Source: Candidatus Pacearchaeota archaeon
Lineage (GTDB): Archaea; Nanobdellota; Nanobdellia; Pacearchaeales; GW2011-AR1
Length of the DNA stretch: 64,000 nucleotides
Reading direction: 5' to 3'
NCBI GenBank assembly: GCA_018221305.1
Contig: JAAOYK010000056.1
Location: 26,863 to 90,862 of the forward strand
Positions 4,064-59,665 of the stretch are shown one piece after another (the stretch's first letter is position 1; every line of letters begins with the position of its first letter). A model generated the notes under the pieces. The model did no database searches, was not told the origin of the DNA, and was given only the letters and a program-made list of their open reading frames with translations. Made by a program: the position numbers and the translations under genes.

Positions 4064-4092
4064 AAAAACGTTACAGTGTTCACAAATTTACT

Positions 4093-4165
4093 AGCCCCTT
4101 AGTACAGTGGTCAAGTATCATCGGTTCTGGGCCGATGGACCCAGGTTCGAATCCTGGAGGGGCTA
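4093..4165 (+). tRNA. tRNA-Gln (anticodon CTG)
   Basis: Hand-folded cloverleaf: acceptor AGCCCCT/AGGGGCT, D-arm GTAC..GTAT, anticodon stem ATCGG/CCGAT with loop TTCTGGG, T-arm CAGGTTCGAATCCTG. No encoded CCA. Confidence 0.8.
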
Positions 4166-4171
4166 TCTGGT

Positions 4172-4244
4172 GCCCCGATAGTGCAGCGGCCAAGCATCCA
4201 GCCTTCTCAAGGCTGTGACCCGGGTTCGAATCCCGGTCGGGGCA
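4172..4244 (+). tRNA. tRNA-Glu (anticodon CTC)
   Basis: Acceptor GCCCCGA/TCGGGGC, anticodon stem CAGCC/GGCTG with loop TTCTCAA, T-arm CCGGGTTCGAATCCCGG. Only 6 nt after tRNA-Gln, so probably co-transcribed. Confidence 0.8.
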
Positions 4245-4364
4245 CTTTTTATCAAAGATAAAATATAGTAATAATAACAAGCCCATATGTAGAGGCTAAG
4301 AACTATTTCTTAGAGTATAGTACAAAACCTATTTATTTAAAAGATAAAAACAATTTCATCTGAA

Positions 4365-4841
4365 ATGATTGGCTACCCAATATATTTTAAAACAAATCCC
4401 CGAGCTTGGTGGATGTTTCGAAGCAATGATTGTATCCAGAGACCCTCGCGTTCTTCAGAGATATGGATTCCCTGGGATCGCAAGTTTCCGAAACACATAC
4501 AATTATATCCGATGGTAAAAGAAGATGCTATTTACTTTTTAGATAATCATTTCTCAAACATTAATTTTAATTGTTCTTCTTCAAGCATGATTATTGACTC
4601 CATAAAACCAGTTAAGTTCAAGATGAGGGTAGAAAAAAATCTTTCTTTAGAAGAAAAGTGTCGAACTGTGATGCATGAAACAATACACGGATTTTATAGG
4701 GTTCATGGTTCTTTATACGCAGAAGATGAAGATGAAAAAGCAATAGAGACAGAGGCTATTAGATTTTGTAATGCTGAAAGTGTATTTATCCAAGATTATG
4801 TAAACAATCTATTACAAAAAGCTAATTCTTCTCAAGATTAG
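4365..4841 (+). CDS. hypothetical protein with an HExxH zinc-metallopeptidase motif (ImmA/IrrE- or SprT-like)
   Basis: VMHETIHGFY contains HETIH (HExxH), with a downstream E/D-rich region. Sits just after the tRNA pair. Confidence 0.35.
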   Translation: MIGYPIYFKTNPRAWWMFRSNDCIQRPSRSSEIWIPWDRKFPKHIQLYPMVKEDAIYFLDNHFSNINFNCSSSSMIIDSIKPVKFKMRVEKNLSLEEKCRTVMHETIHGFYRVHGSLYAEDEDEKAIETEAIRFCNAESVFIQDYVNNLLQKANSSQD

Positions 4842-4966
4842 AACCAAAATCCATCACTCCCATCTCGACAATCTTTATAAATCAAAGCAGTCACAACACC
4901 CTAGCAAAATGTAGGTATTTTGTCATTACAAAAAATACCCCTGATTATCACATTTTACTGCAGTCT

Positions 4967-4979
4967 TCGGCAGGGGCAT
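4967..4979 (+). repeat. 13-nt GC-rich core tcggcaggggcat, identical to the putative attR at 59396-59408 and to the 3' end of tRNA-Glu(TTC)
   Basis: Exact 13-mer shared with 59396-59408. The flanks also match as aGTCtTCGGCAGGGGCATcTTA versus gGTCaTCGGCAGGGGCATtTTA. 12 of 13 match the tRNA-Glu(TTC) 3' end. Confidence 0.55.
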
Positions 4980-5033
4980 CTTACGGTTTTGACCATTTGA
5001 TGAGTGTTTTTAGAATAATATGGTCTTATCTTT

Positions 5034-5309
5034 TTACTTTTCAATTTTTATAGCTTTTCCATGCACTATTGCATCGGCTATTTTCTTTCTTCCAGATTTT
5101 AAAACTCTTGATAAAGTAGATTGTGACACTTGCATTTCTTTTCCTGCTTCTTCTTGAGGAACTTCATTTAAATCAACCAACCGAATCGCTTCAAATTCAG
5201 GCATGGTTAAAACAGACTCTTTTAGTTCAGTCATTCTTATTCCAGAAGGTTTAAAATAAGAAGAATTAGGTCGACCTCTAATTCTTCTTCGTTTACATGG
5301 TCTTGACAT
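5034..5309 (-). CDS. DUF134/UPF0251-family predicted DNA-binding protein
   Basis: The N-terminal basic tail (RPCKRRRIRGRP), MPEFEAIRLVDL and a sigma-70 region-4-like HTH (QEEAGKEMQVSQSTLSRVL..ADAIVHGKAI) match the archaeal UPF0251 pattern. Confidence 0.55.
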   Translation of the reverse strand: MSRPCKRRRIRGRPNSSYFKPSGIRMTELKESVLTMPEFEAIRLVDLNEVPQEEAGKEMQVSQSTLSRVLKSGRKKIADAIVHGKAIKIEK

Positions 5310-5520
5310 TTTTAATTGTCCAGTTGGTTTTGGAATCTATTGCCTCTGCCTCTACCAAGGCCTTTTCCGCAAGCGCCTCGCCCTTGTCCTCTTCCAGCAA
5401 TTGGTTTTGCTCCTTTGCAATCTCCCATTTGCCTTCCAGTTTTTGATCCTTTTCCTTCAGGGCCTGTTCCGTCTCTATTTGGCATTTTCTTTTTCCTCCA
5501 TTAAATTTAGTTACCTTCAA
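5293..5520 (-). CDS. small charged coiled-coil protein overlapping the start of the DUF134 gene
   Basis: 75 aa, E/K-rich. The region has locally higher GC and a 17-nt overlap with the downstream gene, suggesting an operon. A Pro-rich ORF on the opposite strand is probably spurious. Confidence 0.3.
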   Translation of the reverse strand: MKVTKFNGGKRKCQIETEQALKEKDQKLEGKWEIAKEQNQLLEEDKGEALAEKALVEAEAIDSKTNWTIKNVKTM

Positions 5521-5650
5521 AAACTTTTATGGTTTTTGGAGGTCTGAAAATCTATTGATTTTCATTATGAATATATATGCATAATACTATTTAAATGTTT
5601 CGTTTTGAATATATATTCATAATTATTTAGAAATATACTTATTCTCAAAT

Positions 5651-6064
5651 TTAAATCTTCAAAACAATCAACTTTGTGTTACCAAGATTTGTTCTTTTAA
5701 TAACTTCTCTTTGTTCTAATTCCATTAAAACCCTGGAAATTTTTACTTTATTTATTCCAGTTAGGGCAACAATCCTATTTTGTTCTAATGCATTATTATT
5801 TTTAATTAATACTTTTACAATTTTTCTTTGAATTTCTGGAAGAATTTTTAATACTTTTTCTAACTGCACCTTGTTTATCTTCCATTGAAATAACATTACA
5901 ACAAAACCTCCAATAATGATTGAAACAAAAGAGATAGCATACATTATCAGCGGGAGGGACTGATCAACTTCTTCTGTATAAATCCCATTAACAACTGCAA
6001 ACATTACTCCAAGTAAGAAAATTGCTACAAATCCTATGACCAACTTTTCTGATGATACTTCCAT
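5651..6064 (-). CDS. membrane-anchored winged-helix (MarR/TrmB-like) transcription regulator
   Basis: Two N-terminal TM helices, then ALEQNRIVALTGINKVKISRVLMELEQREVIKRT, typical of a wHTH. Confidence 0.45.
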   Translation of the reverse strand: MEVSSEKLVIGFVAIFLLGVMFAVVNGIYTEEVDQSLPLIMYAISFVSIIIGGFVVMLFQWKINKVQLEKVLKILPEIQRKIVKVLIKNNNALEQNRIVALTGINKVKISRVLMELEQREVIKRTNLGNTKLIVLKI

Positions 6065-6065
6065 T

Positions 6066-6302
6066 TTATTGGATTTCCTTTTTTAATTTCAAGAATTCTT
6101 TGTCAGTTATTTCTCCTTTTGCATATCTTTTCTTTACAATATCCATTGCAGTTTCTTTTGTCTTATTTCCTTTTAAAACCCAATACACAATTAAAATAAA
6201 AGCTATAAGTATTAGTAATTGGAATAACCATCCATAACCGTGTATTCCAAATATTCTTCCTATTCCCAGAGGTTTTCCTATTAATCTCTCACAGAGTGTC
6301 AT
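6066..6302 (-). CDS. SHOCT-domain membrane protein
   Basis: C-terminal KKRYAKGEITDKEFLKLKKEI matches the SHOCT short C-terminal domain. One TM helix precedes it. Confidence 0.5.
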   Translation of the reverse strand: MTLCERLIGKPLGIGRIFGIHGYGWLFQLLILIAFILIVYWVLKGNKTKETAMDIVKKRYAKGEITDKEFLKLKKEIQ

Positions 6303-6393
6303 TTTTATCCTCCATTATATTTAATTTATTTAGTTTATAAAATGAACTAAGATAAAAAAATAAAAATAAATCTTCTTAGTCATTTATATTAGC

Positions 6394-6837
6394 TTAGTTA
6401 CCATATGGGCAAATTCCATTATTTCCTTGACCTCTTGAACCAGTTCCTTTTCTTGATCCCTTATTCATTTGGTTTCCCATTTTATGACCTGTTCCATCCC
6501 TTGAACCTTGTCCATTTCCAAGTCCAAGCTCAGCTCTAAGTTCTGCAGCTAATTCGAAATCACCGGATTCTGCTGCTTCGTGAGCTTCTACAAATGTTGC
6601 AAAATTGTCTACAGTTATTACATCAACAACTCTTGGATGTCTACCATTTTCAGTCATTAAAGCAACCCAAGCATCATAGTCTAGATTTTCAAATGCTGTT
6701 TCCATTGCTTCATGCCTATCCTCAGAATAATTAGGTCCTTTTACAGAATAATCTCCTTGATAAGCAAAGACCAAACTAACGCCTAAAAGAGCGATAACTC
6801 CTAAAGCTAAAATTCCTAGTGTTTGTTTGTTTTTCAT
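6394..6837 (-). CDS. secreted/anchored hypothetical protein with a Gly-rich C-terminus
   Basis: The ORF track starts at 6888, but the likely start is MKNKQTLGILALGVIALLGV, a signal/TM segment. The C-terminus is rich in G/S/N/K. Confidence 0.4.
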   Translation of the reverse strand: MKNKQTLGILALGVIALLGVSLVFAYQGDYSVKGPNYSEDRHEAMETAFENLDYDAWVALMTENGRHPRVVDVITVDNFATFVEAHEAAESGDFELAAELRAELGLGNGQGSRDGTGHKMGNQMNKGSRKGTGSRGQGNNGICPYGN

Positions 6838-7166
6838 TTTTTTCTTGTACCTCCTTACAACTACACAGTTTCTGTGTTTTTCATACATTTCATAAGGTGA
6901 AACAAGGTATGTACTTTACTGAAACGAGTTAAGAAAAACATGAAACAAGTTAAAGAAAAAGAGAAATAAGATAAAAAAATAAATTATTTTGCATCCGGAT
7001 TGCATTTTTTATACCAATTACAATCCCAACATTTTAACCCGCTTTTAGATTTTGGACAATTAGGTCTTTTATTTAACGATCCAGCAATAAACCAACATTC
7101 TCTCCCAGAATTATATTTATATGCAGGACATTTCTCACGGACTTCTTTTGGACACTTTTCAAATTC

Positions 7167-7547
7167 TCAACAATTTTCTGATTCTCTAATATTATCTATT
7201 AATTTTTCTATTTCTAAATAGTGTTTTTTAATTATTTTTTTATCCCTAAAATCCTTTGAATAGTCTTTTAATGCAGAAATAACTTTTTTTAAATCATTTT
7301 TTGTTGGATCATCAAAATTTCCATCAACACCACTGAACACTTTTTTAATTAAAGCAATAACTTCAATTTTTTTAGTTGATTCTTTTTCTTCCTTTGAGAG
7401 ATTATCCATCCCCTCACGTTCATTGTCCAGGGCATTATTATGCGCTTTACTAAAACACCTAATAATCGCATCCCTTACATCTAATCCGCAAATAGTCTTA
7501 GAAATGTCTACCCCATAAATTTTATTACATTTTTTGTTGTCGTTCAT
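7167..7547 (-). CDS. hypothetical protein ending at a TGA that is followed in-frame by a Cys-rich 60-codon extension (6984-7166)
   Basis: ORF ends ...IRESENC then TGA. The same frame continues EFEKCPKEVREKCPAYKYNSGRECWFIAGSLNKRPNCPKSKSGLKCWDCNWYKKCNPDAK to a TAA. Confidence 0.4.
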   Translation of the reverse strand: MNDNKKCNKIYGVDISKTICGLDVRDAIIRCFSKAHNNALDNEREGMDNLSKEEKESTKKIEVIALIKKVFSGVDGNFDDPTKNDLKKVISALKDYSKDFRDKKIIKKHYLEIEKLIDNIRESENC

Positions 7548-7883
7548 GGTGTTATCTTAGATAAGTTCCCTTATATATTTTTACTTATAATACGTTATCC
7601 TAATTCTGTCTCATATTTATAAAAAAATAAAAAATCTATTCAATAGGCTCCCTAGCTAAGAAAGCCCACCCCTGTTTCTTTGTTTTAATCACTTCTCCTC
7701 AATCAACTTCCCTAATATAATCATCCATTTAGGCTCTTTTTCTAGCAAAAAGTATAAGATAAAAAAATTGTGTCCCCTGCGCATGCTATTGGAGCACGGT
7801 CGGCGGCAGGGTCTAATATCCTTATTCTGGAGTAGTAACATTATGGGAAGGTTTATAAGGGTGAAAATATGACCTAAAGTACA

Positions 7884-8894: not shown

Positions 8895-10337
8895 ATGGAT
8901 CCACTAAAAATTGCTATTGTTGATGATAAAGTTGAATACGCAGAAAAATTGCGAAAAGAATTAAGACGTTCTACTGGTATTCTTGACAAATTTAAGATTA
9001 ATTATCAGATTTGGGATTCTTCTTATGAGTCTTTGGATGCACGAGATTTTGTACGAACTAAACCTGATGTTCTCTTACTTAACGAAAATGTTTCTAATAG
9101 GTGTGGGTTTGAAATTTGTAGAGAGATTAAAAAAATGAGTCCATTTACGTCTGTGATTTTAACCTCAGGAACTCCGGCATTTAGAAGTTATCGGCAATTA
9201 CGAGATGCCCTAAATCAAGATGATGTGCCTTTGGATGGTATTATTGATGAAGGTTTGACTGTAACAAAAAAACAAAGAGTGTTGAGATCAAATTTGCGTA
9301 AACCATTAAACCTTGCAGTTTTAGGGTTAGGATATTTGGGTGTTGGGTTTATGCAAAACTTTTTAGAAATGCCTGAGGTTGCAAAAGTTAATGGTTTTAG
9401 TGAAAGAGAAAAAACGCCTGGAGAGGGGATTGTTGATTATGATAGTGTTTATAAATTATTAGAAGTCTTAGACCAAGGATATGGCCAGAATGATAAGCTT
9501 AATTTGTTGAATAGTTTAGAAGAGGCTGTAAGTAATACTGATGCCGTAGTTATTGCTACTTCTGCTATACATGGATCGAGTCTTGGTAAGGTTGCTAAGA
9601 CCCCTCATCGAATGGATTTAATAGACGTTGAAGGGGACAAAATTTCAAGATATTGTCAATTGCTCCATGATGTTGGATATAATGGTCTTGTTACTATTTT
9701 TACAAATCCTGTTGGGGGTAATTTAACTTTAGGGCGAAAAGTAGGGCTTGAATGTGGGCAATTAACATCTTCTATAAATATTGATGAAGAAAGATTACAT
9801 ACTGCTGCAAAAGCGGTTTTAGGTAATAATTTTGACGGGTTTTTTAAGAAGTTTTATCAAATTGTTGGGGATCATGGGGATGCGCATCTTGCACAGTTGC
9901 ATGGTGGTTATGATGATATACAACGCTTTACTGCTGATTATCGTCGTGTTAAGGATGCTATTAATGATGTTCTTTTGCAGGCGCGCCAGATGGCTCCTGA
10001 TTCTATGAAAGCGTCTAGTGATACTGGCATGCCTTATTATAAGTCTCAGCTGCATGGTTCAAAAATGTTTGCCAAACTTGCACGGTTTGGTTTTAATGGT
10101 ATTGATAGCGCGTATTGTTATGCTAATATCGGTGATCAAAAAGGATATTTAGCACTTCCTGTCAAAGTTGATTATTATCCTGAAATAAGATTTTATCCTG
10201 ATTCAGAGGTTATTAATGATTTGGATGGATCAACTATTCAAGGGCTTGAAGATCGGCTGAAATTTCAAGGATTATATGTTGAAAATTTTTTAAGGCATAG
10301 GGAGAAAAATGAAAGAAAAAATCATGCAAGTGTTTAA
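8895..10337 (+). CDS. fusion of a degenerate response-regulator receiver (REC) domain to an L-lactate/malate dehydrogenase-like NAD-binding domain
   Basis: N-terminus KIAIVDDK...DVLLLNENV is CheY-like, but the phospho-acceptor position is Asn rather than Asp. C-terminal part has LAVLGLGYLGVGF (GxGxxG), FTNPVGG (compare TNPVD) and IVGDHGDAHLAQ (compare GEHGDS), which are LDH/MDH signatures. Confidence 0.5.
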   Translation: MDPLKIAIVDDKVEYAEKLRKELRRSTGILDKFKINYQIWDSSYESLDARDFVRTKPDVLLLNENVSNRCGFEICREIKKMSPFTSVILTSGTPAFRSYRQLRDALNQDDVPLDGIIDEGLTVTKKQRVLRSNLRKPLNLAVLGLGYLGVGFMQNFLEMPEVAKVNGFSEREKTPGEGIVDYDSVYKLLEVLDQGYGQNDKLNLLNSLEEAVSNTDAVVIATSAIHGSSLGKVAKTPHRMDLIDVEGDKISRYCQLLHDVGYNGLVTIFTNPVGGNLTLGRKVGLECGQLTSSINIDEERLHTAAKAVLGNNFDGFFKKFYQIVGDHGDAHLAQLHGGYDDIQRFTADYRRVKDAINDVLLQARQMAPDSMKASSDTGMPYYKSQLHGSKMFAKLARFGFNGIDSAYCYANIGDQKGYLALPVKVDYYPEIRFYPDSEVINDLDGSTIQGLEDRLKFQGLYVENFLRHREKNERKNHASV

Positions 10338-11046
10338 GTCGATTGGCTTGGCAAAAAATGAAATTAAGGTTTATTTAGACCTAGTCCAGTATGGGCTTTC
10401 ATCAGCCTTAGAAATCTCTAGACGGATAGGGATACATCGACCAAATACTTATGACGCACTACGCGGATTGATTGAAAAAGGATTTATTACAGAAACTGTT
10501 AAAGAAAATAGGAAATGTTTTGTTGCTGTTAATCCTGAAAGGATTACTGAATATGTTATGCAAAAAAAGCATGATGTTGAAGAAGTTATTCCGTATTTAA
10601 AGGATTTTACAAAAAAGATTGAAGGTGATGAAGAAGTTTATATTACAAAAGGTGTATATGCTTTTAGAAATGCATTGATAAGTTTATTAGAACTTAATAA
10701 GCCTATAAATATTTCAGGAATTCCTATTGGGTCTCATGATGTCTTAGGTGATGGGTTCTTGGCTGATTTTCATGATCGACGAATAAAGAAAAAGATTTTA
10801 ATGAGGCATATCTATAATAGGGAAGCAACAGATAGGGTAAAAGAATTGAATAAATTGCCTTATACTGAAGCAAAGCATTTAGCACGAAAGTATGATGCTG
10901 ATGTTAGCATAAATATTTGCGGAAATGTGGTTTTAATGGTTATCTTTAGTAATCCTATATCTATTATAGAAATTAAAAACAAAGAAATTGCTGCTACCTA
11001 TAATAAGTATTTCGAGATTCTATGGAAGCATGCGAAAAGTGCATAA
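10324..11046 (+). CDS. TrmB-family transcriptional regulator
   Basis: N-terminal HTH LAKNEIKVYLDLVQYGLSSALEISRRIGIHRPNTYDALRGLIEKGFI is typical of TrmB. The track ORF starts at 10309; the start was moved to MQVF. It overlaps the end of the upstream gene. Confidence 0.55.
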   Translation: MQVFKSIGLAKNEIKVYLDLVQYGLSSALEISRRIGIHRPNTYDALRGLIEKGFITETVKENRKCFVAVNPERITEYVMQKKHDVEEVIPYLKDFTKKIEGDEEVYITKGVYAFRNALISLLELNKPINISGIPIGSHDVLGDGFLADFHDRRIKKKILMRHIYNREATDRVKELNKLPYTEAKHLARKYDADVSINICGNVVLMVIFSNPISIIEIKNKEIAATYNKYFEILWKHAKSA

Positions 11047-11152
11047 TTTTATGTTACTATCCCAAAAGGGTAACTTGGTTGTCTAGAAAAATACTACCTT
11101 GCTTTTTATACAAATTTTTCTTAATATATTTATAATTTCGGAGGATTATAAA

Positions 11153-11491
11153 ATGATAGATGACATGTGTATAAGTTGTTCAGAACCAATAACAAATCCT
11201 ATTTGCTATAGGTGCTTTTTAAAGCAGATACACTTATGGCTTTATGACAAAAATTTTGAAAAAGATGTAATTAATGAAATATTGCGTGAGGTGCGCAAGG
11301 AAGTTTTTGTTGACTCATTGAGTGAGACGTGCTGTATACTCTGCGATGACGAGTATGTCGCGGTTTGCTCATATTGTGTGTTTTTTCGGGCAGCTAATGT
11401 TTTGAAACGGTTTGGCGTGAATAATGAACTTCTTGAAGATTTTTTAGAAATCTTTAATTATCAGCTAGGTCATGCCTCATACCATTTGTAG
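11153..11491 (+). CDS. Cys-rich hypothetical protein, putative zinc-binding
   Basis: Motifs CISC...CYRC...CCILC...CSYC. Likely start is MIDDMC inside the longer track ORF. Confidence 0.35.
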   Translation: MIDDMCISCSEPITNPICYRCFLKQIHLWLYDKNFEKDVINEILREVRKEVFVDSLSETCCILCDDEYVAVCSYCVFFRAANVLKRFGVNNELLEDFLEIFNYQLGHASYHL

Positions 11492-11493
11492 GT

Positions 11494-11530
11494 TTTTTTC
11501 TTTTTTTTTTCTTTTTTTTCTTTTTTATCA
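11494..11530 (+). terminator. oligo-T tracts (archaeal-type terminator candidate)
   Basis: tttttttctttttttttttcttttttttcttttttatc lies immediately after the stop codon. Confidence 0.35.
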
Positions 11531-17155: not shown

Positions 17156-17282
17156 GCCGCAGTAGCTCAGTTTTGGTTAGAGCGCGTCATTGGTAATCTA
17201 AAGATCTTAATTGATTTTTATCTTTTAAGATTCATAGAATCTAAAAATGACGAGGTCCCGGGTTCGAGCCCCGGCTGTGGCT
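17156..17282 (+). tRNA. tRNA-Thr (anticodon GGT) with a ~51-nt intron at the canonical 37/38 position
   Basis: Acceptor GCCGCAG/CTGTGGC, D-arm GCTC..GAGC, anticodon stem CGTCA...TGACG. The loop TTGGTA is followed by an AT-rich insert (17196-17246) before A38. T-arm CCGGGTTCGAGCCCCGG. Confidence 0.7.
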
Positions 17283-49773: not shown

Positions 49774-49894
49774 TGAGCCTACCAGGATTTGAACCTGGGA
49801 CCCCTGCCTTTCTTAGCAGATGCTTAGAAAATACATTTCTAGTGAAACATACTCTTATAAGAGCAGTGCTCTGACCTGACTGAGCTATAGGCTC
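49774..49894 (-). tRNA. tRNA-Ile (anticodon TAT) with a ~46-nt intron, assuming the canonical 37/38 intron position
   Basis: Reverse strand: acceptor GAGCCTA/TAGGCTC, D-arm GCTC..GAGC, anticodon stem CTGCT...GGCAG, loop 5' part CTTATA followed by an AT-rich insert, T-arm CCAGGTTCAAATCCTGG. Confidence 0.55.
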
Positions 49895-51550: not shown

Positions 51551-51581
51551 GAGTATTAGTTTCTTTTAAACAAACTAATCT

Positions 51582-51654
51582 GCCCCTGTAGTGCAGCGGC
51601 CAAGCATCCGGCCCTTTCGAGGCCGTGACCCGGGTTCGAATCCCGGCAGGGGCA
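51582..51654 (+). tRNA. tRNA-Glu (anticodon TTC); putative integration target (attL)
   Basis: Acceptor GCCCCTG/CAGGGGC, anticodon stem CGGCC/GGCCG with loop CTTTCGA, T-arm CCGGGTTCGAATCCCGG. Its 3' end cggcaggggcat is repeated at 59397-59408. Confidence 0.8.
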
Positions 51655-51731
51655 TGTCTATATTATGATTAAAAAGTGGGACTCGGAATTTGTATAGAAA
51701 ATACTAAAAAGTACTAATTCTCTAATAAGCT

Positions 51732-52346
51732 ATGGCTTTTAATTGTGAAGTTTGTAAAGAAGAAATAACCGAAAAAGAAAATAATTATTCTACAAAAAAC
51801 TGCGGAAGACCATTATGCAGGAAACATCAGCATACTAAAAATAACAGCATGTCAAAAAAAGATATGTATTCTAAAGAAAATATGATTAAAGGAAGGATCG
51901 CTGAAACTTTAATCGAAGAACTCTTTCTTTATTTAGGATATAATGTATTCAGATATGGTATGGAAAATACAGTTCCGGGGGTCATGGGCTTATTAAAGGG
52001 AGTAAGAAGCGATGTTGCAGATAATATAAGACGTATGCCAGATTTTGTTATACAAAGCAATAGTGGAGAAAACAAAGGGGAAGTATATTTTATTGAAGTG
52101 AAATTTAGAGCAAGTGAAGAATTTTCAATAAAAAACCTACCAAAAAATTATCCTTTTGAAAATTGCTATTTTATTCTTGTTTCAAAAAAACATATCAAAT
52201 GCATTTCCTACAAAGAACTTCAAGCTGGAAAAGTGATCAGTCCAAAATCTCAAAATTATCTTGGAAGCCGAAAAGAATTTGCATTAGATAAAAAGGTTAT
52301 AATCGAATTTTGTAATTTTGCAGTTAAGTTTTTTGAGAATGTTTAA
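51732..52346 (+). CDS. N-terminal zinc ribbon fused to a PD-(D/E)xK (restriction-endonuclease-fold) nuclease-like domain
   Basis: CEVCKEE...CGRPLC ribbon. Core AETLIEELF...MPDFVIQSNSGENKGEVYFIEVKFR supplies E, PD and E-V-K in canonical order. Confidence 0.45.
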   Translation: MAFNCEVCKEEITEKENNYSTKNCGRPLCRKHQHTKNNSMSKKDMYSKENMIKGRIAETLIEELFLYLGYNVFRYGMENTVPGVMGLLKGVRSDVADNIRRMPDFVIQSNSGENKGEVYFIEVKFRASEEFSIKNLPKNYPFENCYFILVSKKHIKCISYKELQAGKVISPKSQNYLGSRKEFALDKKVIIEFCNFAVKFFENV

Positions 52347-52384
52347 AAATTCATAAGAATTTAGAGGTTTATTAAGAAAAAACA

Positions 52385-53254
52385 CTAGGCAGTAATTAAT
52401 TCTTTTTTAGAGATCATAAAATTTATCTGGGGTTTCGGCTTTACAAATAATTTAGAAGTTTGAGTATCGTATAATTTTTTTGTTCCATATTTTATATGAT
52501 ATTTAATTCCTCTTTTTTTACAAAAATTCTCAACAATCTTTGCACATCTTTCATAAAATTCTTCATTCTTGTTAAATGCACTACTCTTAACATTATAATT
52601 TAATTTACCAAAGATTATATTATTAACAAAAGAGATCTCATTCAGTAATTTGATTAATGCTTGAAATGGATTTTTTTCTTTACTAATGTTTGGAGTAGGA
52701 TAAGGTTCCATACTAACCCAAGTTTTTAGTCCGGCTTTATGTAATCTTTTTAGAGATTTAATTCTTCCACGATAAGGGGCACTATTTGGTTCAAACCGAT
52801 TTTTAAATTCTTTATTTAAAGATACTAAGGTAATCCCATATTCATTATTCCTACTATATTTTTTAATATCCTTTAGATTTGTAGGATATATTCCTTTGGT
52901 TAAAACAGTACATTTAATCCCATTAACATTTAATTTATTAATTATTTTCAAAGTCATATCAGTAACTTCAGGATATTTATACATAAATGGATCTGTAGTA
53001 AAACACAAATGAACAAATTTTATTTCATCCTTATATTTTGGAATTTCTTTATCTAAAAGTTCTAATGCATTTTTAACAAGTTTTGGTTGTTTCCACCCTT
53101 CAAAAGATTTAACTTTTCCAAATCTTCTTGCCATATTATATGCATAACAAGGGAATGTGCATCCATGAGAACAACCTTCAACATGATTTATACAAAAGTC
53201 TGCATACTCAACCTTACTCTTATACAATAAGCTCTTTCTAGTAACTTTCTTCAT
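52385..53254 (-). CDS. three-Cys-motif radical-SAM-like / phage Gp37-Gp68 (DUF5131)-like protein, the expected partner of TcmP
   Basis: N-terminal YADFCINHVEGCSHGCTFPCYAYNMA has a clustered Cys motif ending in CYA, as in Gp37/Gp68 and SplB-type proteins. 289 aa. Abuts the tcmP-like gene on the same strand. Confidence 0.4.
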   Translation of the reverse strand: MKKVTRKSLLYKSKVEYADFCINHVEGCSHGCTFPCYAYNMARRFGKVKSFEGWKQPKLVKNALELLDKEIPKYKDEIKFVHLCFTTDPFMYKYPEVTDMTLKIINKLNVNGIKCTVLTKGIYPTNLKDIKKYSRNNEYGITLVSLNKEFKNRFEPNSAPYRGRIKSLKRLHKAGLKTWVSMEPYPTPNISKEKNPFQALIKLLNEISFVNNIIFGKLNYNVKSSAFNKNEEFYERCAKIVENFCKKRGIKYHIKYGTKKLYDTQTSKLFVKPKPQINFMISKKELITA

Positions 53255-53293
53255 TTTTCACCTTTTTATATGAATATAATGGAAGCCTCATTT

Positions 53294-54418
53294 TTATATG
53301 TTGTTATTTAAATTGTTAAAATCGATAATTGTTTTTCCCGGAGGAAATACGCCCCTTCTATTCTGCCCATTTCTCTCAACAGAAATCTTTTTATCTTCTT
53401 CCATTTCAGTAAGAACAACCCTAGCATGTTTATCTAAAAAAGATGTTTTAACAAGTACGTAGTCGAATACTTCTTCAACATCTACTTTCTTAAATTTAAA
53501 TTCTTCAACAATTTCTTTTTGCAACCGATTATAATCCGGTTCATTAGAGAATAAAACTGATTGATTGGGATTGTAGGTAAAATCCGAAAAAGTAAATTCT
53601 CCACTATCATCTACAGACCACATAGCTTCCTTCATTTTTTTTAATCCCAATTTATTCTTTGTGACAAAAAAAAGAACATAATCTTTCTTATTGAATTTAT
53701 TAACCATATCAAATGTTCTAATATAACATTCCCCTTCGCAAGAATTACGTAATTGTTTTTCGTATAAAGATACTAAAAATAAATATCTTTCTTTCGGTGT
53801 TTTATAATTATGAACTTCTTTCCATTTAGATTCTTCTCCAAATAAAGCGCATACATTTTTTTTATTTTGAGGAAGAGAAATAAATCGAATTAATTCCTCG
53901 TACATAAAGTTAATGAGTACTTCACAAGACTTTTTATTCATCATACGACTAATAGTATTCAAGGATAATCCTTTAATACCAAAAGGATCTATGAAGCAAA
54001 AAGTAGGAGCTATATTCTTATTATCTTTCTCTAATTCATTAAGAATATTATTAACCACTGTTTCAAATTCTGCATTGATTGTTTTTATCTTAAGATTTTC
54101 TTTAGAATAGCTTTTTAATTTTTCATTTAAATATTCTATTACTTTCTTTTCCTTATCTACAAAAATAAAACTTACTTCCTTTATTCTTTCTTTTAGTGAA
54201 TGTTCTAAATAACAATCAATTGCTATTATTGGTGAACCTTTAACTTTTTCACCTTTTTTAGTAAGATATTCTCCAGGTCCAGCAAAACCATCAAGATAAA
54301 TTATCCTCTTATTAGTTGAAGATAAAATAGCCATCCAAGGTTGAAGATACTTTCGAAGAATTTCATGTTTAGCAGAAGTATGGGGGTCAATTAGCCAAGG
54401 AATTTTTTTGATTTCCAT
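53294..54418 (-). CDS. tcmP: three-Cys-motif partner protein (TcmP)-like protein
   Basis: N-terminus WLIDPHTSAKHEILRKYLQPWMAIL and IIYLDGFAGPGEY (SAM/nucleotide-binding-like DxFxGxG) fit my recollection of the TcmP family. Size (374 aa) and adjacency to a three-Cys protein match the described pairing. Confidence 0.45.
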   Translation of the reverse strand: MEIKKIPWLIDPHTSAKHEILRKYLQPWMAILSSTNKRIIYLDGFAGPGEYLTKKGEKVKGSPIIAIDCYLEHSLKERIKEVSFIFVDKEKKVIEYLNEKLKSYSKENLKIKTINAEFETVVNNILNELEKDNKNIAPTFCFIDPFGIKGLSLNTISRMMNKKSCEVLINFMYEELIRFISLPQNKKNVCALFGEESKWKEVHNYKTPKERYLFLVSLYEKQLRNSCEGECYIRTFDMVNKFNKKDYVLFFVTKNKLGLKKMKEAMWSVDDSGEFTFSDFTYNPNQSVLFSNEPDYNRLQKEIVEEFKFKKVDVEEVFDYVLVKTSFLDKHARVVLTEMEEDKKISVERNGQNRRGVFPPGKTIIDFNNLNNNI

Positions 54419-54621
54419 AAATTTTTAGAACAAATATTCTTTATAAACCCCACTCTAAAACAAGGATAAATAATAAGCTATTTTTATCTTTTCCCCCTTA
54501 GCCCCCTTTCCCCCCATAGTATCTATGTATGTTTATACATATATACAGAGCACGATTTAGTGACTCTTTTGAGGCATCCCAACGTCGATGAAACTCCTTT
54601 TACACCCTAAAAATCTGGGTG

Positions 54622-55674
54622 TTAGATTTTCATTAATTTTTTAAGCTTTTTTCGCATATCTCTCCGTTGGGTGCACAATCCAAATTTTGAATATGCTTTA
54701 TATAAATCTCTATTAGAAACTACAATCATCCATCTTCTCCCATACCTATTTTTTAAAAATTCTATTTTATCCTTTAATTGTTTCTTTTTTCTTAATAAAC
54801 TGCCTGTTTCAACCTCTATTGCATATTTTTTAGATCTTATCTTAAATGTTATATCTGCATCTCGAGTATCATGATCTATTATTTTTTCAGTTTCTAAACA
54901 CTCTAATAATAATTGTTTGACATTCCAAACAAGAAAGGTGTGAGTTGCAGAATGATTTAAAATTTGCTTCACCAATACAGGAATTATTTTATTTTCGAGA
55001 ATACAATATTCATTAACTTGAGAAAATCCTTCTTCTTTCAAAACTTCAATCTCTTTTTCAGATAAATCCTCTTTTTTGAAAACTTTTTTATCATGTATAT
55101 CTAAATCTTCTTCTATTTTTTGTTTTATGTCCCTTTGTTTTGCTTCTAGATCTCTTTTTTCTCCTTCTAATTCAGAAACCTTTTTTTCTAATTCATAATT
55201 TTTTTCATAAATCTTTTCTAATTTTTCTTTATTTTTTGTTTTTATAAGAACTGCTTCTGCCTCTTTTACTTTTTTCTTAATTTCATTTTTATAATTCCAA
55301 AACCTAGATTCCAGAAACTTATCAGATCCTAGTTCCTCAATAAAACTCTCTAATTCTTTAGAGGTTAAGTATTCAAGATCTTTGTTAAGATATTTCTCGA
55401 CATATTCTTTATCTTGTTTTATTTTCTTTTTTCTCTCTTCTTTTTGTTTTGCAATCTTAAGGAGATAAACATGTAATTTATAATTAAGATAAATAAGAGT
55501 AATTAGGAAAATACAAATCATAACTAACTGAAAAATTAAGTTATGAATAAGATTGTTTAAACGCCCTGGAATTTTAGGGATTTCTTGTATTATTCCCATA
55601 ATAGCTTCATAGACCACATATCTTAGAAAAAGAAAAAATAAAATTGCAAGGATAACAAATTCATCTTGCTCCAT
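54622..55674 (-). CDS. membrane-anchored long coiled-coil protein with a C-terminal PD-(D/E)xK-like nuclease domain
   Basis: Two N-terminal TM helices and ~150 aa of E/K heptads. C-terminus has HSATHTFLVWN...IIDHDTRDADITFKIRSKKYAIEVETGS, a D...D...E.E arrangement. Confidence 0.35.
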   Translation of the reverse strand: MEQDEFVILAILFFLFLRYVVYEAIMGIIQEIPKIPGRLNNLIHNLIFQLVMICIFLITLIYLNYKLHVYLLKIAKQKEERKKKIKQDKEYVEKYLNKDLEYLTSKELESFIEELGSDKFLESRFWNYKNEIKKKVKEAEAVLIKTKNKEKLEKIYEKNYELEKKVSELEGEKRDLEAKQRDIKQKIEEDLDIHDKKVFKKEDLSEKEIEVLKEEGFSQVNEYCILENKIIPVLVKQILNHSATHTFLVWNVKQLLLECLETEKIIDHDTRDADITFKIRSKKYAIEVETGSLLRKKKQLKDKIEFLKNRYGRRWMIVVSNRDLYKAYSKFGLCTQRRDMRKKLKKLMKI

Positions 55675-55676
55675 CC

Positions 55677-56846
55677 CTACTCCTTCACCATCCTTTCCAT
55701 TTTTAATACATACATACCAATAGTTTTCATTTGGCTTTTTAGGATATCTATTTCATTTTGCATAGAACTAACTTCTTCTTTTAAAATATCATTTTTATTT
55801 TCAGCCTTTACTAATCTCTTCTCAATCTCTGTTTTTGTTAAATCCATTAACATATCTTCCTCACTTATTGTATCACGCATCCCTAACATTTCGCTGTAAT
55901 AATGGATTTTATCTGATTTTTTCCAGCCAAATCTAAATTTTAGGGCAGATTCGGATTTATATCTTAATAACCAATAACAGCAACTGCAGTGCCTAAAATC
56001 ATACATTGTTAAATCTGAATATTTCTGTCCTGCAGGACTTTTCTCATCCCCTAAGATTCTTTTCCCTAATCTCTTCAGATAATTATTAACACTATAAGGA
56101 TTAATAGGAAATAGTTGATCATTTGGTTTTAAGTCCTTAACTTTAACATATTTTTTAATTAAATCAGAGCATAGCATTAACTTAATTTTCCTTCCAAAAG
56201 TTTTAGAAATTTCTTCTTTAATGTTCAATTCTTTAAAATCGTTTGATAGGTCTGAAACTCTTAAATTAACTAATTCGGTAGGACTTCTAATTCCTGTATC
56301 AAATAAAAACATAATTAAAATACTATATTCATATTTTGCTTCATCGCATAATTGCTTAATTTGTTCTTCTGTTAAATAAACCCATTCGGGTTTATCTCCC
56401 GTTGTATCTAAATATTGAGTTATGTCTGGAAGAGTTTGTCCTTCTTTATTCTTAATTTTTTGATACCAGTGCCAAAAAGCTTTATAGATTTTAGCATAAT
56501 CTCTAATGCTCTTGTATCTTTCACCATCCTGCCTTTTAACCTCTCCATTTCTCATGGCAGTAAAAAAAGAACATAGCTCATTTTCGCTTATTTCTGTTAA
56601 ATTTTTATTAAATTTAGTTTTAAAGTGCTTTGCTAAGAAAACCATACGATTTCTTAACGTGTTAAGCCGTGTGTAGCTTCTTGCCCCTTTTTTGTTAGAC
56701 ATAGAGATGTTTATGCCAAGTTCCATATCTTTTAGATATTGAAGAATTATCTCTGAATTTTCTTTAGACAAATCAGGGATTTGTCCCTGTATTAATTTTT
56801 TCCATCTCAAATACTTTTCTTTATTCTTATATGGATCGATCTTCAT
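55677..56846 (-). CDS. tyrosine recombinase / integrase
   Basis: Box I FLFDTGIRSPTELVNLRVSDL (catalytic Arg), box II YDFRHCSCCYWLL (R-H), then KIHYYSEMLG (candidate nucleophilic Tyr). N-terminal SAM-like core-binding region. Sits inside the tRNA-bounded element. Confidence 0.7.
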   Translation of the reverse strand: MKIDPYKNKEKYLRWKKLIQGQIPDLSKENSEIILQYLKDMELGINISMSNKKGARSYTRLNTLRNRMVFLAKHFKTKFNKNLTEISENELCSFFTAMRNGEVKRQDGERYKSIRDYAKIYKAFWHWYQKIKNKEGQTLPDITQYLDTTGDKPEWVYLTEEQIKQLCDEAKYEYSILIMFLFDTGIRSPTELVNLRVSDLSNDFKELNIKEEISKTFGRKIKLMLCSDLIKKYVKVKDLKPNDQLFPINPYSVNNYLKRLGKRILGDEKSPAGQKYSDLTMYDFRHCSCCYWLLRYKSESALKFRFGWKKSDKIHYYSEMLGMRDTISEEDMLMDLTKTEIEKRLVKAENKNDILKEEVSSMQNEIDILKSQMKTIGMYVLKMERMVKE

Positions 56847-56932
56847 CTTATTAGTCGTGTGTGTCTAGATGGAGCTTATTTTTAAATCTTGTCGAGAAGG
56901 AAAGGATGCGATGGGAGTGGTGGAAGAAGGGT

Positions 56933-57904
56933 TTATTTTTTAAGAAAGGGAAGGGTATTAGCTTCTTGTTCTCCTTCAATAAGTAATACATCAAGATTAG
57001 AAAATTCATTCTCTCCAAATAGCTCCTTTAACTTATCTATTTGACTTCTTAATTCAAATTCATTTTTATGAAATAATTGAATAAAACAATTCGGTTTAGA
57101 CATGGTCAAAAAAAGTGAATTAACAAATTGGGAAGATCTCGCAAAATTTTTTATTTTAGCTTGATTTTCTATAGATAAATTATTGAATTCCAAAGAAATT
57201 ATGGAAAAGAAGTATCCCAATCTTTTCATATCGAATAAAATTCTAGAGCCAAGAATAACTTTCTTTTGATACAACTTTTTTAATTTATATAAAACTAGTT
57301 CTGCAGAAAGATTTATTTTTTTAGCTATATCTATTATTTTAATTCTTCCATCTTCTTCTAAAATCCTTAGTATTTCTAATTCTTTTTGATCTAATTTAAT
57401 CTTCTTTGATTTTTCAGTTATTTCAATGCTCTCCTCCTTTTTATTTTTAAGGAATTTAAGGGGATATTTTTCAATAAAAAAAGGCTTTAAAATCAAATAA
57501 TCTAAAATTAAGCCTTTATCCCTGCCTAGAATGAAATTAAGAGAATCTCTAAAATCTTTCTCATCTTTAAAAATAAGATTCAAAAAGAGATCATATTTAT
57601 TAAAAACAGCCCCACTAGAGATACAATGTTTACTTTGCTTGAACTCTTTTTCAAAAGCCTTAATTTTCTCCTTATCTGAAAATTTTAAGAATAAGATAAC
57701 TAAATAATTATAACCTAAAGATTCATAATTAAAAAACGTTGCAAATTTCTTGATTATGCCTTTTTCCAAGTACTTTTTTATTTTATAGTCTACTTGTTCT
57801 CTAGATAATTTCGTTTCCTTAGCTATTTTTGTTAAAGACTCCCGATTATTGTGATACAAATATGAAATGAGTTTTATATCTAACGGTTTAAGAGATTTTT
57901 CCAT
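56933..57904 (-). CDS. tandem Lrp/AsnC-like regulator (paralogue of 35326..36291)
   Basis: Two Lrp-type HTH repeats (LDIKLISYLYHNNRESLTKIAKETKLSREQVDYKIKKYLEKGII and LDQKELEILRILEEDGRIKIIDIAKKINLSAELVLYKLKKLYQKKVI). Confidence 0.5.
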   Translation of the reverse strand: MEKSLKPLDIKLISYLYHNNRESLTKIAKETKLSREQVDYKIKKYLEKGIIKKFATFFNYESLGYNYLVILFLKFSDKEKIKAFEKEFKQSKHCISSGAVFNKYDLFLNLIFKDEKDFRDSLNFILGRDKGLILDYLILKPFFIEKYPLKFLKNKKEESIEITEKSKKIKLDQKELEILRILEEDGRIKIIDIAKKINLSAELVLYKLKKLYQKKVILGSRILFDMKRLGYFFSIISLEFNNLSIENQAKIKNFARSSQFVNSLFLTMSKPNCFIQLFHKNEFELRSQIDKLKELFGENEFSNLDVLLIEGEQEANTLPFLKK

Positions 57905-58026
57905 ATTTTTAATGTATATTTTTAGTATATAAAATTATCTATTAAATAAAGATTAAACTAAATTTATTTCTTTTATTCGTATTTTACCTAAGAATACTTT
58001 AAATATCTTTTAAATATAAGTCAATT

Positions 58027-58986
58027 ATGGCAAAAACTACATTAGTGGGACAAGTTGAATCGCAATTTGAACCTATCTCTAATCAGATCACGGAAACCGG
58101 AAGTTTGGCTAAATATGTTTCTGATTCTCTTATGGATAAAACACCTAGGATTTCTCCAGAGTTGTTTGGTCTATCAAGAAAAGCTAACCTTAATTTAACC
58201 CCTGAACAAGAAGGTCATATATGCAATGAATATCTTGGACATTATAGCCCCGCATTTACATACAGAATTAGCAGGGAAGATTTCAAATATGCCTTTTTAG
58301 ATTCAACAAAAATAAGTGTTGATGCAAAGATCCCTTACTTTGCTTATGCTATTCTACCAGATAATAAAGAAGTCATTTTCTCTAAATCTGCAATAATTAC
58401 TGCTTTAGATAAATTTGATATTTCAACAAGTAATAGGGATCATCCTTTCAAAGAGTATACCGATCTTGTCATAAGTCATAACAATCATTCTTCATCCTTT
58501 TCTGGATTAATCGAGGATAAAGATATAGATGGGAAAAACCTGAAGAAATATTCCTTCCCTTCAAAATCTTACGGAAATGTTAGCCTAGATGTTAATGCAA
58601 AATGGACAGCTCCATTCAAATTAGATGTCTTGACTAAAGTCCCAGAGATTCCAGAATCTTTTATAGCCCTTGGAGATGAAGCTATATCTGCCTACTATAC
58701 TGCCCTAAAAAACGCACCAAAAAAGTTAAGGCAAAAAACTTCTCTAATTTCCCCAAGAATAGGTGTATTGTGGGTTCCTAGCAACGCATCTTTATGTTGT
58801 GTCGGAAAAATTCCAAAGGCTAAATCACCCCCAAGAATAAAAGGAGATCCAATCCTAGTTTTAGACATACCTGACAAAGATAAAAGTCATAAACATGCTA
58901 TTGCCGCATGGAATATAGATGAAGAACTCCCATTTAAATATTGGATCACAGAATTTAGTGAAGGAGCACTGGGAAATATAAAATGA
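58027..58986 (+). CDS. hypothetical protein (island cargo)
   Basis: 319 aa, no motif recognised. Its stop overlaps the next ORF (ATGA). Confidence 0.35.
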   Translation: MAKTTLVGQVESQFEPISNQITETGSLAKYVSDSLMDKTPRISPELFGLSRKANLNLTPEQEGHICNEYLGHYSPAFTYRISREDFKYAFLDSTKISVDAKIPYFAYAILPDNKEVIFSKSAIITALDKFDISTSNRDHPFKEYTDLVISHNNHSSSFSGLIEDKDIDGKNLKKYSFPSKSYGNVSLDVNAKWTAPFKLDVLTKVPEIPESFIALGDEAISAYYTALKNAPKKLRQKTSLISPRIGVLWVPSNASLCCVGKIPKAKSPPRIKGDPILVLDIPDKDKSHKHAIAAWNIDEELPFKYWITEFSEGALGNIK

Positions 58987-59348
58987 TTTTTGGCGGTTTT
59001 GGAATTTCTGATTCTGAGGGTAGAAAAAAACTTTGCAAGGATAAAGGCAATCTTTTAAATGCGATAGCAGAACATGTAAAAGAACAGTCTACAAGAAAAA
59101 AACTTTCAGATAAGGATCCCTTTGTTCAGTATCTAATAGAATGCTCTGCAAGAGAAAAACTTTTGTTTGGAAAAGCATTAAAAGACTATGGAAATTACAT
59201 GGAATATTGTACTGCTAGAATTGAGGCAAGGTTGGTAAGAAATGCCCTTGAAGATTTTGATAAGGGAGATTATCAAAGTTCCAGAATAAAACCTTATCAA
59301 AGGTTTTTGATAGATATTATAGAAGGAAAAGACCCACAAATAAAATAG
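58983..59348 (+). CDS. hypothetical protein (island cargo)
   Basis: 121 aa, translationally coupled to the upstream ORF. Confidence 0.35.
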   Translation: MIFGGFGISDSEGRKKLCKDKGNLLNAIAEHVKEQSTRKKLSDKDPFVQYLIECSAREKLLFGKALKDYGNYMEYCTARIEARLVRNALEDFDKGDYQSSRIKPYQRFLIDIIEGKDPQIK

Positions 59349-59395
59349 CCAAAAAATAGCCCGAGTCCCATCAATTCATCACAACATAGAGGTCA

Positions 59396-59408
59396 TCGGC
59401 AGGGGCAT
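59396..59408 (+). repeat. putative attR: 12-13-nt direct repeat of the tRNA-Glu(TTC) 3' end (tcggcaggggcat)
   Basis: An exact 12-mer cggcaggggcat is shared with 51644-51655. The same 13-mer also occurs at 4967-4979. Confidence 0.55.
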
Positions 59409-59665
59409 TTTATCATCTTGAATGAATTGGGTGTTTTTTGTAAAAGTAAATTATTTAAACAAAGAAACTAATTTAATTAAGAGGTGTTATAATTGTAAAA
59501 AATCCTTTTAAAATAGTAAGGCTAAAAGAGCTTGAAACATTAATCTGTCTTTCCTCGAATCCAAAAAGATTTATCTTAAGAAAAAAAGATTTTCATAAAC
59601 ATTTAAAATTTGGAGATGCTATATTTTCTTTAAATTTACCACATAGAAAAGGAACCGGGGCCAAG

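Follow-up and report, generated by a model that had tools for sequence, protein, structure and literature searches.

Why should the last few nucleotides of a tRNA-Glu gene recur, with no tRNA gene around them, some 47 kb away from the integrated island that they delimit? The question is raised by positions 4967-4979 of a stretch of 64,000 nucleotides (hereafter, the window) from a Candidatus Pacearchaeota archaeon (contig JAAOYK010000056.1 of assembly GCA_018221305.1). The 13-nt word found there, which we call site A, also closes E1, an island with its own tyrosine integrase that sits at the tRNA-Glu(TTC) gene in the right part of the window, and A itself lies behind another pair of tRNA genes, tRNA-Gln(CTG) and tRNA-Glu(CTC). 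An earlier, sequence-only reading of this DNA had offered several possibilities for A, including a remnant or secondary attachment site, the footprint of a decayed second element, and a product of integrase-mediated rearrangement. We consider it probable, at about three chances in four, that A is the core of an internal attachment (att) junction produced by tandem site-specific integration behind the tRNA-Gln/tRNA-Glu(CTC) pair of this Pacearchaeota chromosome.

The word itself, TCGGCAGGGGCAT, is present exactly at 4967-4979 (site A) and at 59396-59408 (site C, the right end of E1), in both cases on the + strand, and a copy that differs in its first base, CCGGCAGGGGCAT, is found at 51643-51655 (+; site B). 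The three copies share the 12-mer CGGCAGGGGCAT, the full 13-mer being exact between A and C only, and at B (51644-51655) this 12-mer is the 3′ end of tRNA-Glu(TTC), made up of the three final T-stem bases, the 3′ strand of the acceptor stem (seven bases), the discriminator A, and one further base. The core of site A thus agrees at 12 of 12 positions with the 3′ end of tRNA-Glu(TTC) plus one base, and the corresponding end of tRNA-Glu(CTC), CGGTCGGGGCAC, agrees at 9 of 12, as the sequence-only reading had proposed in assigning the word to the first gene and not to the second. The similarity of A and C continues beyond the word, and the extension of about 22 nt with two mismatches noted earlier is reproduced by blastn as 21 nt with two mismatches (4963-4983 versus 59392-59412). 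That such a recurrence is not accidental had also been claimed, and it holds: the 13-mer had no match in any of 100 dinucleotide-preserving shuffles, and from the base composition (32% G+C) we calculate that around 1e-4 further copies would be expected in 128 kb. Apart from the shortness of the word, nothing speaks for a chance recurrence of a G+C-rich sequence, and since site A is moreover flanked on both sides by arms specific to an integrase family, as described below, we regard this explanation as refuted. Nor is the 12-mer a dispersed repeat unrelated to tRNA-Glu, an outcome that would have undone the earlier proposal, because among 87 related loci it occurs only at the 3′ ends of tRNA-Glu genes or at att-type sites adjoining integrase genes.

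What an att site of this family looks like can be learned from the relatives of the E1 integrase. This protein has 2209 homologs at E<=1e-3, the best 120 of which are 60-86% identical to it, and many of the homologs at 60-69% identity carry a precomputed match to Pfam PF00589. We sampled 80 metagenome loci that encode family members, along with six more obtained through exact-protein look-ups. In 26 loci, the integrase gene shares its strand with a target tRNA gene (Glu-TTC, Asp, Gly, or Ser) and starts 76-320 nt beyond it, and in other loci it lies a few kb from a tRNA-Glu, Gly, or Gln gene and on the opposite strand. Direct repeats of 12-17 nt from the tRNA 3′ end close islands of 4.6-11.5 kb in L004, L023, L036, L037, L051, L070, and L081, and additional attR sites were recognized in L015/L016, L024, and L035, so that attL/attR pairs are available for eight loci, seven of them through the repeat search and L035 through its P arm. 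To the right of the tRNA gene stands the P′ arm, T-N7-TTTTGgCa-N5-7-GGGGAC, with the sites stacked on the T-stem/acceptor junction, and to the left of the far repeat stands the P arm, GTCCCC-N5-ATGCCAAGA-N6-GGTCG-n-CGG. The boxes of the two arms are reverse complements of each other, and within one element they match closely. For scoring, we built a P′-arm matrix from 30 attL arms and a P-arm matrix from 9-12 attR sites, with the window sites excluded, and applied the P′-arm matrix in a fixed register after the discriminator, deriving empirical p values from all positions of the window. Real P′ arms score 6.1-27.9 (leave-one-out, n=30), and 20 of 22 tRNA trailers without an adjacent integrase score below 1; the two that reach at least 1 are site B of the window and the trailer of a tRNA-Glu gene in L078, which has an integrase 1.9 kb downstream. 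Searching viral contigs for relatives of the integrase returned none, and the literature that could be searched yielded no description of this Pacearchaeota family or of its arms with their inverted 20-bp boxes.

Some loci carry the complete succession of P arm, core, and P′ arm without a tRNA body, and in L018, L026/L033, and L045 such sites adjoin integrase genes. In L018 (5310-5480), two att sites stand around 80 nt apart upstream of one integrase, in the order P arm, CGGCAGGGGCAT, a short P′ arm, a partial copy of the P arm, CCGGCGGGGGCAT, and a P′ arm, an arrangement that looks like nearly empty junctions stacked together. In L026 (224-302) and L033 (801-879), a P arm, the core CGGCCGGGGCG, and a P′ arm immediately precede the integrase gene and are not accompanied by a tRNA body (Rfam was negative for L026); this site is a candidate for the free attP of a circular element or for a tandem junction.

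Site A has the same organization. Its left flank is identical at 36 of 39 positions (E=4e-7) to the arm that adjoins the core of a site in L027, at 18 of 18 to a P arm that belongs to a P-core-P′ site before the L018 integrase gene, and at 19 of 20 to an arm upstream of the L058 integrase; scored in register with the general P-arm matrix, core excluded, it gives p=1.9e-3. On the right, the in-register P′ score is 8.8 (p=1.3e-4), and 25 of 34 positions are identical to the P′ arm of L076, which stands behind an intron-containing tRNA-Glu(CTC) and before an integrase gene, with tRNA-Gln(CTG) upstream, that is, behind the same arrangement of tRNA genes as the one found next to A. There is no tRNA body or fragment at A, Rfam having no tRNA match there either at its gathering threshold or, for 4850-5060, at E<=10, and the fold is not unusual (z=-0.09 against shuffles). 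Since both flanks carry family arms in register without a tRNA body, site A reads as an att-type site of about 90 nt, composed of P arm, core, and P′ arm and belonging to the same tyrosine-integrase family as E1. This is the configuration of an attP or of a junction between elements integrated in tandem. A could still be a substrate for the island integrase.

A fourth site, D, newly recognized here, contains the best match to the P-arm matrix in the whole window (7766-7806), with a score of 30.4 compared to 6.5 for the runner-up. It reads GTCCCCTGCGCATGCTATTGGAGCACGGTCGGCGG, followed by CAGGG and then by unrelated sequence, and of 41 positions compared, 29 are identical in the P arm of the L015/L016 attR and 28 in the L035 arm. 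The P arm is strong, the core is reduced to CGGCAGGG, and the right flank is not P′-like (p>=0.09), and because of this combination of a strong P arm, a partial core, and a non-P′ right flank, D looks like the terminal, attR-like end of an array whose core has decayed. No remnant of an integrase was detected in 3.9-12 kb by tblastn with 26 family integrases (best E=0.05), which fits a decayed rather than a live element, and a family integrase would be available in trans from 55677-56846. One of the genes between A and D, the 164-aa open reading frame (ORF), has a 54% identical homolog around 4 kb downstream of the L017 integrase. Taken together, 4246-7811 has the structure of a tandem array of integrase-less element remnants, in which A would be an internal P-O-P′ junction, O being the core. 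The earlier suggestion of a remnant att site, or of the footprint of a decayed second element, is borne out by the arms on both sides of A, by site D at 7766-7811, and by the missing integrase.

From these observations we infer the following order of integration and decay. The elements would come from a large family with a pNOB8-like tyrosine integrase and would insert at the last ~12 nt of a tRNA gene through an attP with two inverted boxes of ~20 bp, GTCCCC-N5-ATGCCAAGA lying ~16-35 nt to the left of the core and its complement 8-28 nt to the right. Entry of a second element into an already occupied core would create a junction to which the newcomer contributes its P arm and the resident its P′ arm, and A would match such a junction, its left arm being of the type beside the L027 integrase and its right arm of the type behind the L076 tRNA-Glu(CTC). 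Later deletions would have removed the integrase genes and most of the cargo, leaving a 0.7-kb module with a gene for an HExxH protein (4246-4966), a 2.8-kb module of six genes (4980-7765), and the P arm and truncated core of D (7766-7811). The term "secondary attachment site", used in the sequence-only reading, is therefore apt for the locus, the tRNA-Gln/tRNA-Glu(CTC) pair, but not for A itself, which would be a scar of use and not a naive target. One peculiarity is that A has a TTC-type core (CA) beside a tRNA-Glu(CTC) gene with TC. This core may have come with the attP of the newcomer, for example if strands were exchanged inside GGGGCA, a block common to the two tRNA-Glu genes. Alternatively, the array could have formed on a tRNA-Glu with a CAGGGGC acceptor, such as the one with anticodon CTC in L032, or could have arrived as a composite. 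P arms of the A type do occur with both cores, with the CTC type in L027 and with the TTC type in L018 and in the window.

Several results weigh against this history. The matrices, built from 9-30 short, AT-rich sequences, are weak, and only the fixed-register test is significant; an unanchored nhmmer search of the whole window with the P′ profile was not discriminating, with B ranking 4th, A 16th, and C absent. Both arms of A score at the low end of the range of real sites, and with the general matrix p is no better than 2e-3 for the P arm. The presumed anchor, tRNA-Glu(CTC), has a different core, CGGTCGGGGCAC, and no P′ arm, its trailer scoring -18.8 (p=0.37), so that a further deletion or a non-standard history is needed. 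Finally, D has a truncated core, and its P arm and the right arm of A are not partners (inverted-repeat score of 5), for which reason the 2.8-kb stretch may be a fusion of two remnants.

The other tRNA-Glu gene of the window provides the intact counterpart of this array. The right flank of B and the left flank of C are inverted-repeat partners, with 23 of 30 matching positions that include CCGAGTCCCA (empirical p of ~2.5e-5), and they resemble the ends of the L002 element, which encodes an integrase 86% identical to that of E1: the P′ arm of E1 agrees with the corresponding L002 end at 27 of 28 positions, and the left flank of C agrees with the L002 attR arm at 34 of 36 (p=1e-3 in the in-register P test), so that both ends are 94-96% identical. 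Because the arms are partners and the ends match those of the L002 element, the sequence comparison confirms that E1 extends from 51656 to 59395, with B and C as its two ends. The integrase encoded between them is 100% identical to P0001, annotated as [quoted passage not shown]. R187, Y282-D-F-R285, and Y316/Y317 are invariant in an alignment of 26 family members, and the resulting R...YxxR...Y is the pNOB8-type signature as defined in PMC8371274. The window protein has no match to PF00589 at E<=1, and the family profile weakly matches the XerA protein of P. abyssi (4a8e, E=0.005) in the box I region. Its gene is an intact ORF of 389 codons between B and C, not split by integration as in the SSV type, and the enzyme is possibly the one that could act in trans on site A.

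Site C appears to have a history of its own. On its right flank, GGGTGTTTTTTGTAA is the reverse complement, at 14 of 15 positions, of 4926-4940, the outer part of the P arm of A (p of ~4e-4, or ~5e-3 after correction for 12 comparisons), and the L002 attR has no such P′-like right flank, unlike C. This suggests that C is likewise a junction, formed over what was left of an earlier element of the type that contributed the P arm of A. On the simplest reading, the same type of element would once have been present at both tRNA-Glu genes, and E1 would later have integrated on top of the remnant at the TTC locus. No closing site for the remnant flanking C was found within the window.

How, then, do other explanations of A compare? 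It might be the simple attR of a single decayed element at tRNA-Glu(CTC), with ordinary chromosome to its right and D unrelated to it. The left flank is clearly a P arm, a tRNA gene with a 9/12 core lies 720 bp to the left, and the module enclosed is small and lacks an integrase, as is the case in L087, where the right att site precedes rpS15. We nevertheless hold this to be unlikely, since the right flank of A fits a P′ arm in register, with the p value and the similarity to L076 already given, and since the strong P arm and partial core that follow 2.8 kb further on, with a right flank that is not P′-like, have the look of a terminal attR. A fragment of a duplicated or decayed tRNA-Glu(TTC), that is, a pseudo-tRNA that owes nothing to site-specific recombination, is very improbable. 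The 12-mer is indeed a tRNA 3′ end, and ACCCCTG at 4939-4945 can pair with CAGGGG in the manner of an acceptor stem; however, there is no T, D, or anticodon arm, neither the Rfam search nor the fold reported above points to a tRNA, and the supposed 5′ strand of the acceptor is the conserved GTCCCC-type box of the P arm, which is also found at sites that are not of the Glu type. We also rejected a structured RNA at A, as its fold is no better than that of shuffles, and, since neither tRNA-Glu gene is incomplete, a split tRNA as in Nanoarchaeum was likewise discarded.

A further alternative would have A and C arise when the two tRNA-Glu loci underwent an exchange or translocation mediated by integrase. 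In its favour, the P arm of A and the P′-like flank of C are partners at 14 of 15 positions (~4e-4 before correction), as the separated ends of one element would be, and a TTC-type core at A beside tRNA-Glu(CTC) would be accounted for. Yet all the att copies are direct repeats on the + strand, recombination between which would excise 46-54 kb with five tRNA genes (Thr, Trp, His, Ile, and Glu(TTC)), and the genes of the window from 11.6 to ~44 kb keep the order seen in L027, L057, L035, and L014. The partner arms are more simply explained if the same type of element inserted independently at the two tRNA-Glu genes, and we consider a translocation quite improbable. The same observations, namely the direct orientation, the conserved order of 11.6-44 kb, and the tRNA-Thr, Trp, His, and Ile genes in the interior, also leave without support the inversion or rearrangement between 4.97 and 59.4 kb that the sequence-only reading had entertained.

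The comparison with relatives bears on the tandem-integration reading as well. The gene order of L027 is that of 11.6-21.3 kb of the window, and 1.3 kb upstream of its homolog of the gene at 11630 there is the site with the A-like P arm, which has a core of the CTC type, CCGGTCGGGGCAT, and an intact integrase gene that starts 48 nt away. Given this synteny and the intact integrase, the same chromosomal locus holds a live element in a relative. At the other end, the arrangement of tRNA-Trp, tRNA-His, and tRNA-Glu(TTC) with an integrase recurs in L035, L014, and L077. By gene order, the region from the tRNA pair to ~11.6 kb is a variable, island-bearing locus, and the DNA between A and B is ordinary syntenic chromosome. 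Since synteny with L027 begins only at 11630, the stretch from 7.8 to 11.6 kb may hold older island material. A synteny search among genome contigs with the 303-aa neighbour was uninformative, as it returned one distant locus, L001, without a tRNA there.

The left module of the array deserves separate comment. Its ORF at 4365-4841 (NCBI locus GOV14_06040) encodes a protein of 158 aa with an HExxH motif and has two homologs only among 5.8 billion proteins, one of them foreign. The latter, 81% identical at the protein level, is found on the 1.16-kb contig L087 between two cores of the tRNA-Gln type, after which the rpS15 gene follows, and a P arm stands before either core (scoring 25.7 and 6.6 with the matrix). 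The proposal that an ImmA-like gene next to the tRNA pair is mobile-element debris is thus supported in its second part by the position of this homolog between two att-type sites, but not in its first, as the match to Peptidase_M78 (PF06114), on which an ImmA/M78 assignment would rest, is weak (E=0.003, below the cutoff). The differences between the two ORFs number 18, 12, and 29 at the three codon positions, and because of this excess at third positions, the gene is probably still functional. The arms of the module are only 44-55% identical between the window and L087, and its cores are of the Glu type in the window (from tRNA-Glu(CTC) to site A) and of the Gln type on both sides in L087. It is conceivable, if rather doubtful, that this 0.72-kb module is a miniature integrase-less integrative element that is moved in trans by family integrases and swaps arms and core between tRNA targets.

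Arrays of this kind have precedents in bacteria. In tandem accretion, as described for the ICESt1-related islands of Streptococcus, the resident element decays, losing its integrase and keeping its att sites, and the resulting cis-mobilizable elements (CIMEs) are defined as having lost integration and transfer genes while retaining attL and attR (PMC5704250). Arrays of CIMEs contain internal att junctions like site A, and the same three-step history as the one proposed here is given in that work (PMC5704250); the differences are that the host is a DPANN archaeon and that no conjugation genes are involved. The strict definition of a CIME probably does not apply to our array, in which D keeps only part of a core and the site at the tRNA gene combines a 9/12 core with the lack of a P′ arm, even though site A is intact and the integrase is lost. 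In Dehalococcoides, multiple tandem islands are found downstream of one small-RNA gene, ssrA, and are bounded by direct repeats of its 3′ end; a conserved motif that does not match ssrA immediately precedes each repeat, and integration genes are missing from some of the islands (PMC3146451). That motif is placed like the P arm described here. Those islands, however, depend on a serine recombinase and form an array of up to 100 kb at ssrA, whereas the present case involves a tyrosine integrase, tRNA genes, 3.6 kb, and a core from a paralogous tRNA.

For archaea, both tandem integration at one locus and loss of the integrase after integration have been reported (PMC8371274), and the family studied here resembles the pNOB8 type in its R...YxxR...Y, in a gene that stays intact on integration, and in its tRNA 3′-end target (PMC8371274). 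The integrated mobile genetic elements (iMGEs) of Thaumarchaeota (PMC6563490) belong to the same comparison. Fragments of tRNA genes are known as footprints of mobile elements, a partial tRNA 3′ end being left in the chromosome by site-specific integration (PMC9897764); by comparison, the copy at A comprises 12-13 nt only, and it has element arms on both sides rather than an element on one side and chromosome on the other.

The coordinates of the features of both loci are given in Table 1.

Table 1. Features of the tRNA-Gln/tRNA-Glu(CTC) locus and of island E1, in positions of the window.
Feature	Positions	Strand	Remarks
tRNA-Gln(CTG)	4092-4167	+	First gene of the pair heading the array; ARAGORN; Rfam tRNA, 56 bits
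tRNA-Glu(CTC)	4172-4245	+	Presumed anchor (attL position); 3′ end CGGTCGGGGCAC, core 9/12
Putative left remnant module Ex	4246-4920	+	One intact ORF, 4365-4841
Site A, P arm	4921-4966	+	GTCATTACAAAAAATACCCC-TGATT-ATCACATTT-TACTGCA-GTCTT
Site A, core O	4967-4979	+	CGG (T-stem end), CAGGGGC (acceptor 3′ strand), A (discriminator), T
Site A, P′ arm	4980-5012	+	CTTACGG-TTTTGACCA-TTTGA-TGAGTG-TTTTT
Putative right remnant module(s) Ey	5013-7765	-	Six small genes
DUF134 gene	5034-5309	-	Pfam
DUF5320 gene	5312-5485	-	Pfam
Gene for membrane protein with DUF7343 winged helix	5651-6064	-	Pfam
SHOCT gene	6066-6302	-	Pfam
164-aa ORF	6394-6888	-	No significant Pfam match
126-aa ORF	7167-7547	-	No significant Pfam match
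Site D	7766-7811	+	P arm GTCCCC-TGCGC-ATGCTATTG-GAGCAC-GGTCGG, then CGG and truncated core CAGGG
Site B, tRNA-Glu(TTC), attL of E1	51581-51655	+	Core 51644-51655; ARAGORN, Rfam
E1 P′ arm	51656-51690	+	P′ matrix 12.5, p=1.6e-5
E1 tyrosine integrase, 389 aa	55677-56846	-	Only family integrase in the window
Site C, right end of E1	59350-59408	+	P arm 59350-59395, core 59396-59408
Right flank of C, P′-like	59409-59444	+	P′ matrix 6.7, p=4.3e-4

Some further observations were made at these loci and at those of the relatives. Within the right module, two adjacent direct repeats of 37 nt (5560-5634; 78% identical), each with the palindrome-like ATGAATATATAT(G/T)CATAAT, occupy the intergenic space upstream of the DUF5320/DUF134 pair and may be an operator. 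To the right of the array, a gene for a TrmB-family regulator (10309-11046, +) has homologs in seven integrase loci, and the homolog in L081 ends 9 nt before the attR P arm; a fifth site sought after the window gene was not found, there being no P arm (best score of -11.8). A T/C-rich tract of repeated (T7-10 C) lies at 11483-11530, between a Cys-rich ORF (11099-11491) and the conserved block. Two intron-containing tRNAs detected by Rfam and missed by ARAGORN, at 17156-17282 (+) and 49774-49894 (-), resemble tRNA-Thr(GGT) and tRNA-Ile(UAU), and neither is a tRNA-Glu. Inside E1, 52385-54418 (-) encodes a radical-SAM/DUF5131-like protein and a 374-aa protein with a GMT-like winged helix, and the same pair adjoins the L054 integrase (66% and 31% identity), so that these genes may form a conserved module of cargo with a possible role in defence or DNA modification. 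Directly downstream of the integrase gene, 54622-55674 (-) encodes a coiled-coil protein of 350 aa without a Pfam match, which has homologs in 24 integrase loci and may be a conserved partner of the integrase.

Among the relatives, the tRNA-Glu(CTC) gene of L076 (within 900-1175) has an intron of ~70 nt and a length of 141 nt (Rfam, 1035-1175), and upstream of it stand partial duplicates of its 5′ end, with CCCCGATAGTATAG present twice, and a repeated stretch of 30 nt. In L059 (9606-9910), the last 19 nt of tRNA-Glu(TTC) and the P′ arm are present in three head-to-tail copies with an 81-bp period, just upstream of the integrase gene. Short "ghost" copies of tRNA 3′ ends were also seen 40-140 nt downstream of tRNA-Leu, Arg, and Thr genes in L006, L023, L027, L040, and L041.

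For the biology of the window, the finding is an ordinary one: in a little-studied lineage, it would be the familiar kind of scar that tandem integration and decay leave behind. Each of the two tRNA-Glu genes of one small DPANN genome has served as a landing pad for the same integrase family, and, by the evidence of their sequences, one locus would hold a live island of 7.7 kb and the other a stack of remnants of 3.6 kb. The main value lies in the anatomy of the att sites, which can be reused for delimiting islands in DPANN genomes. The integrase family is very common in Pacearchaeota and related genomes, with more than 2,200 homologs, and the motifs of the arms, GTCCCC-N5-ATGCCAAGA on one side of the core and the complement on the other, are a practical way to delimit both islands and integrase-less remnants in them. 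If the HExxH module does move in trans, it would be an archaeal counterpart of bacterial CIMEs and satellites in DPANN, a group whose mobilome is barely known, and, taken with the att-site "stutters" of L059 and L018, it would be a sign that elements accrete and excise unusually often at the tRNA genes of these reduced genomes.

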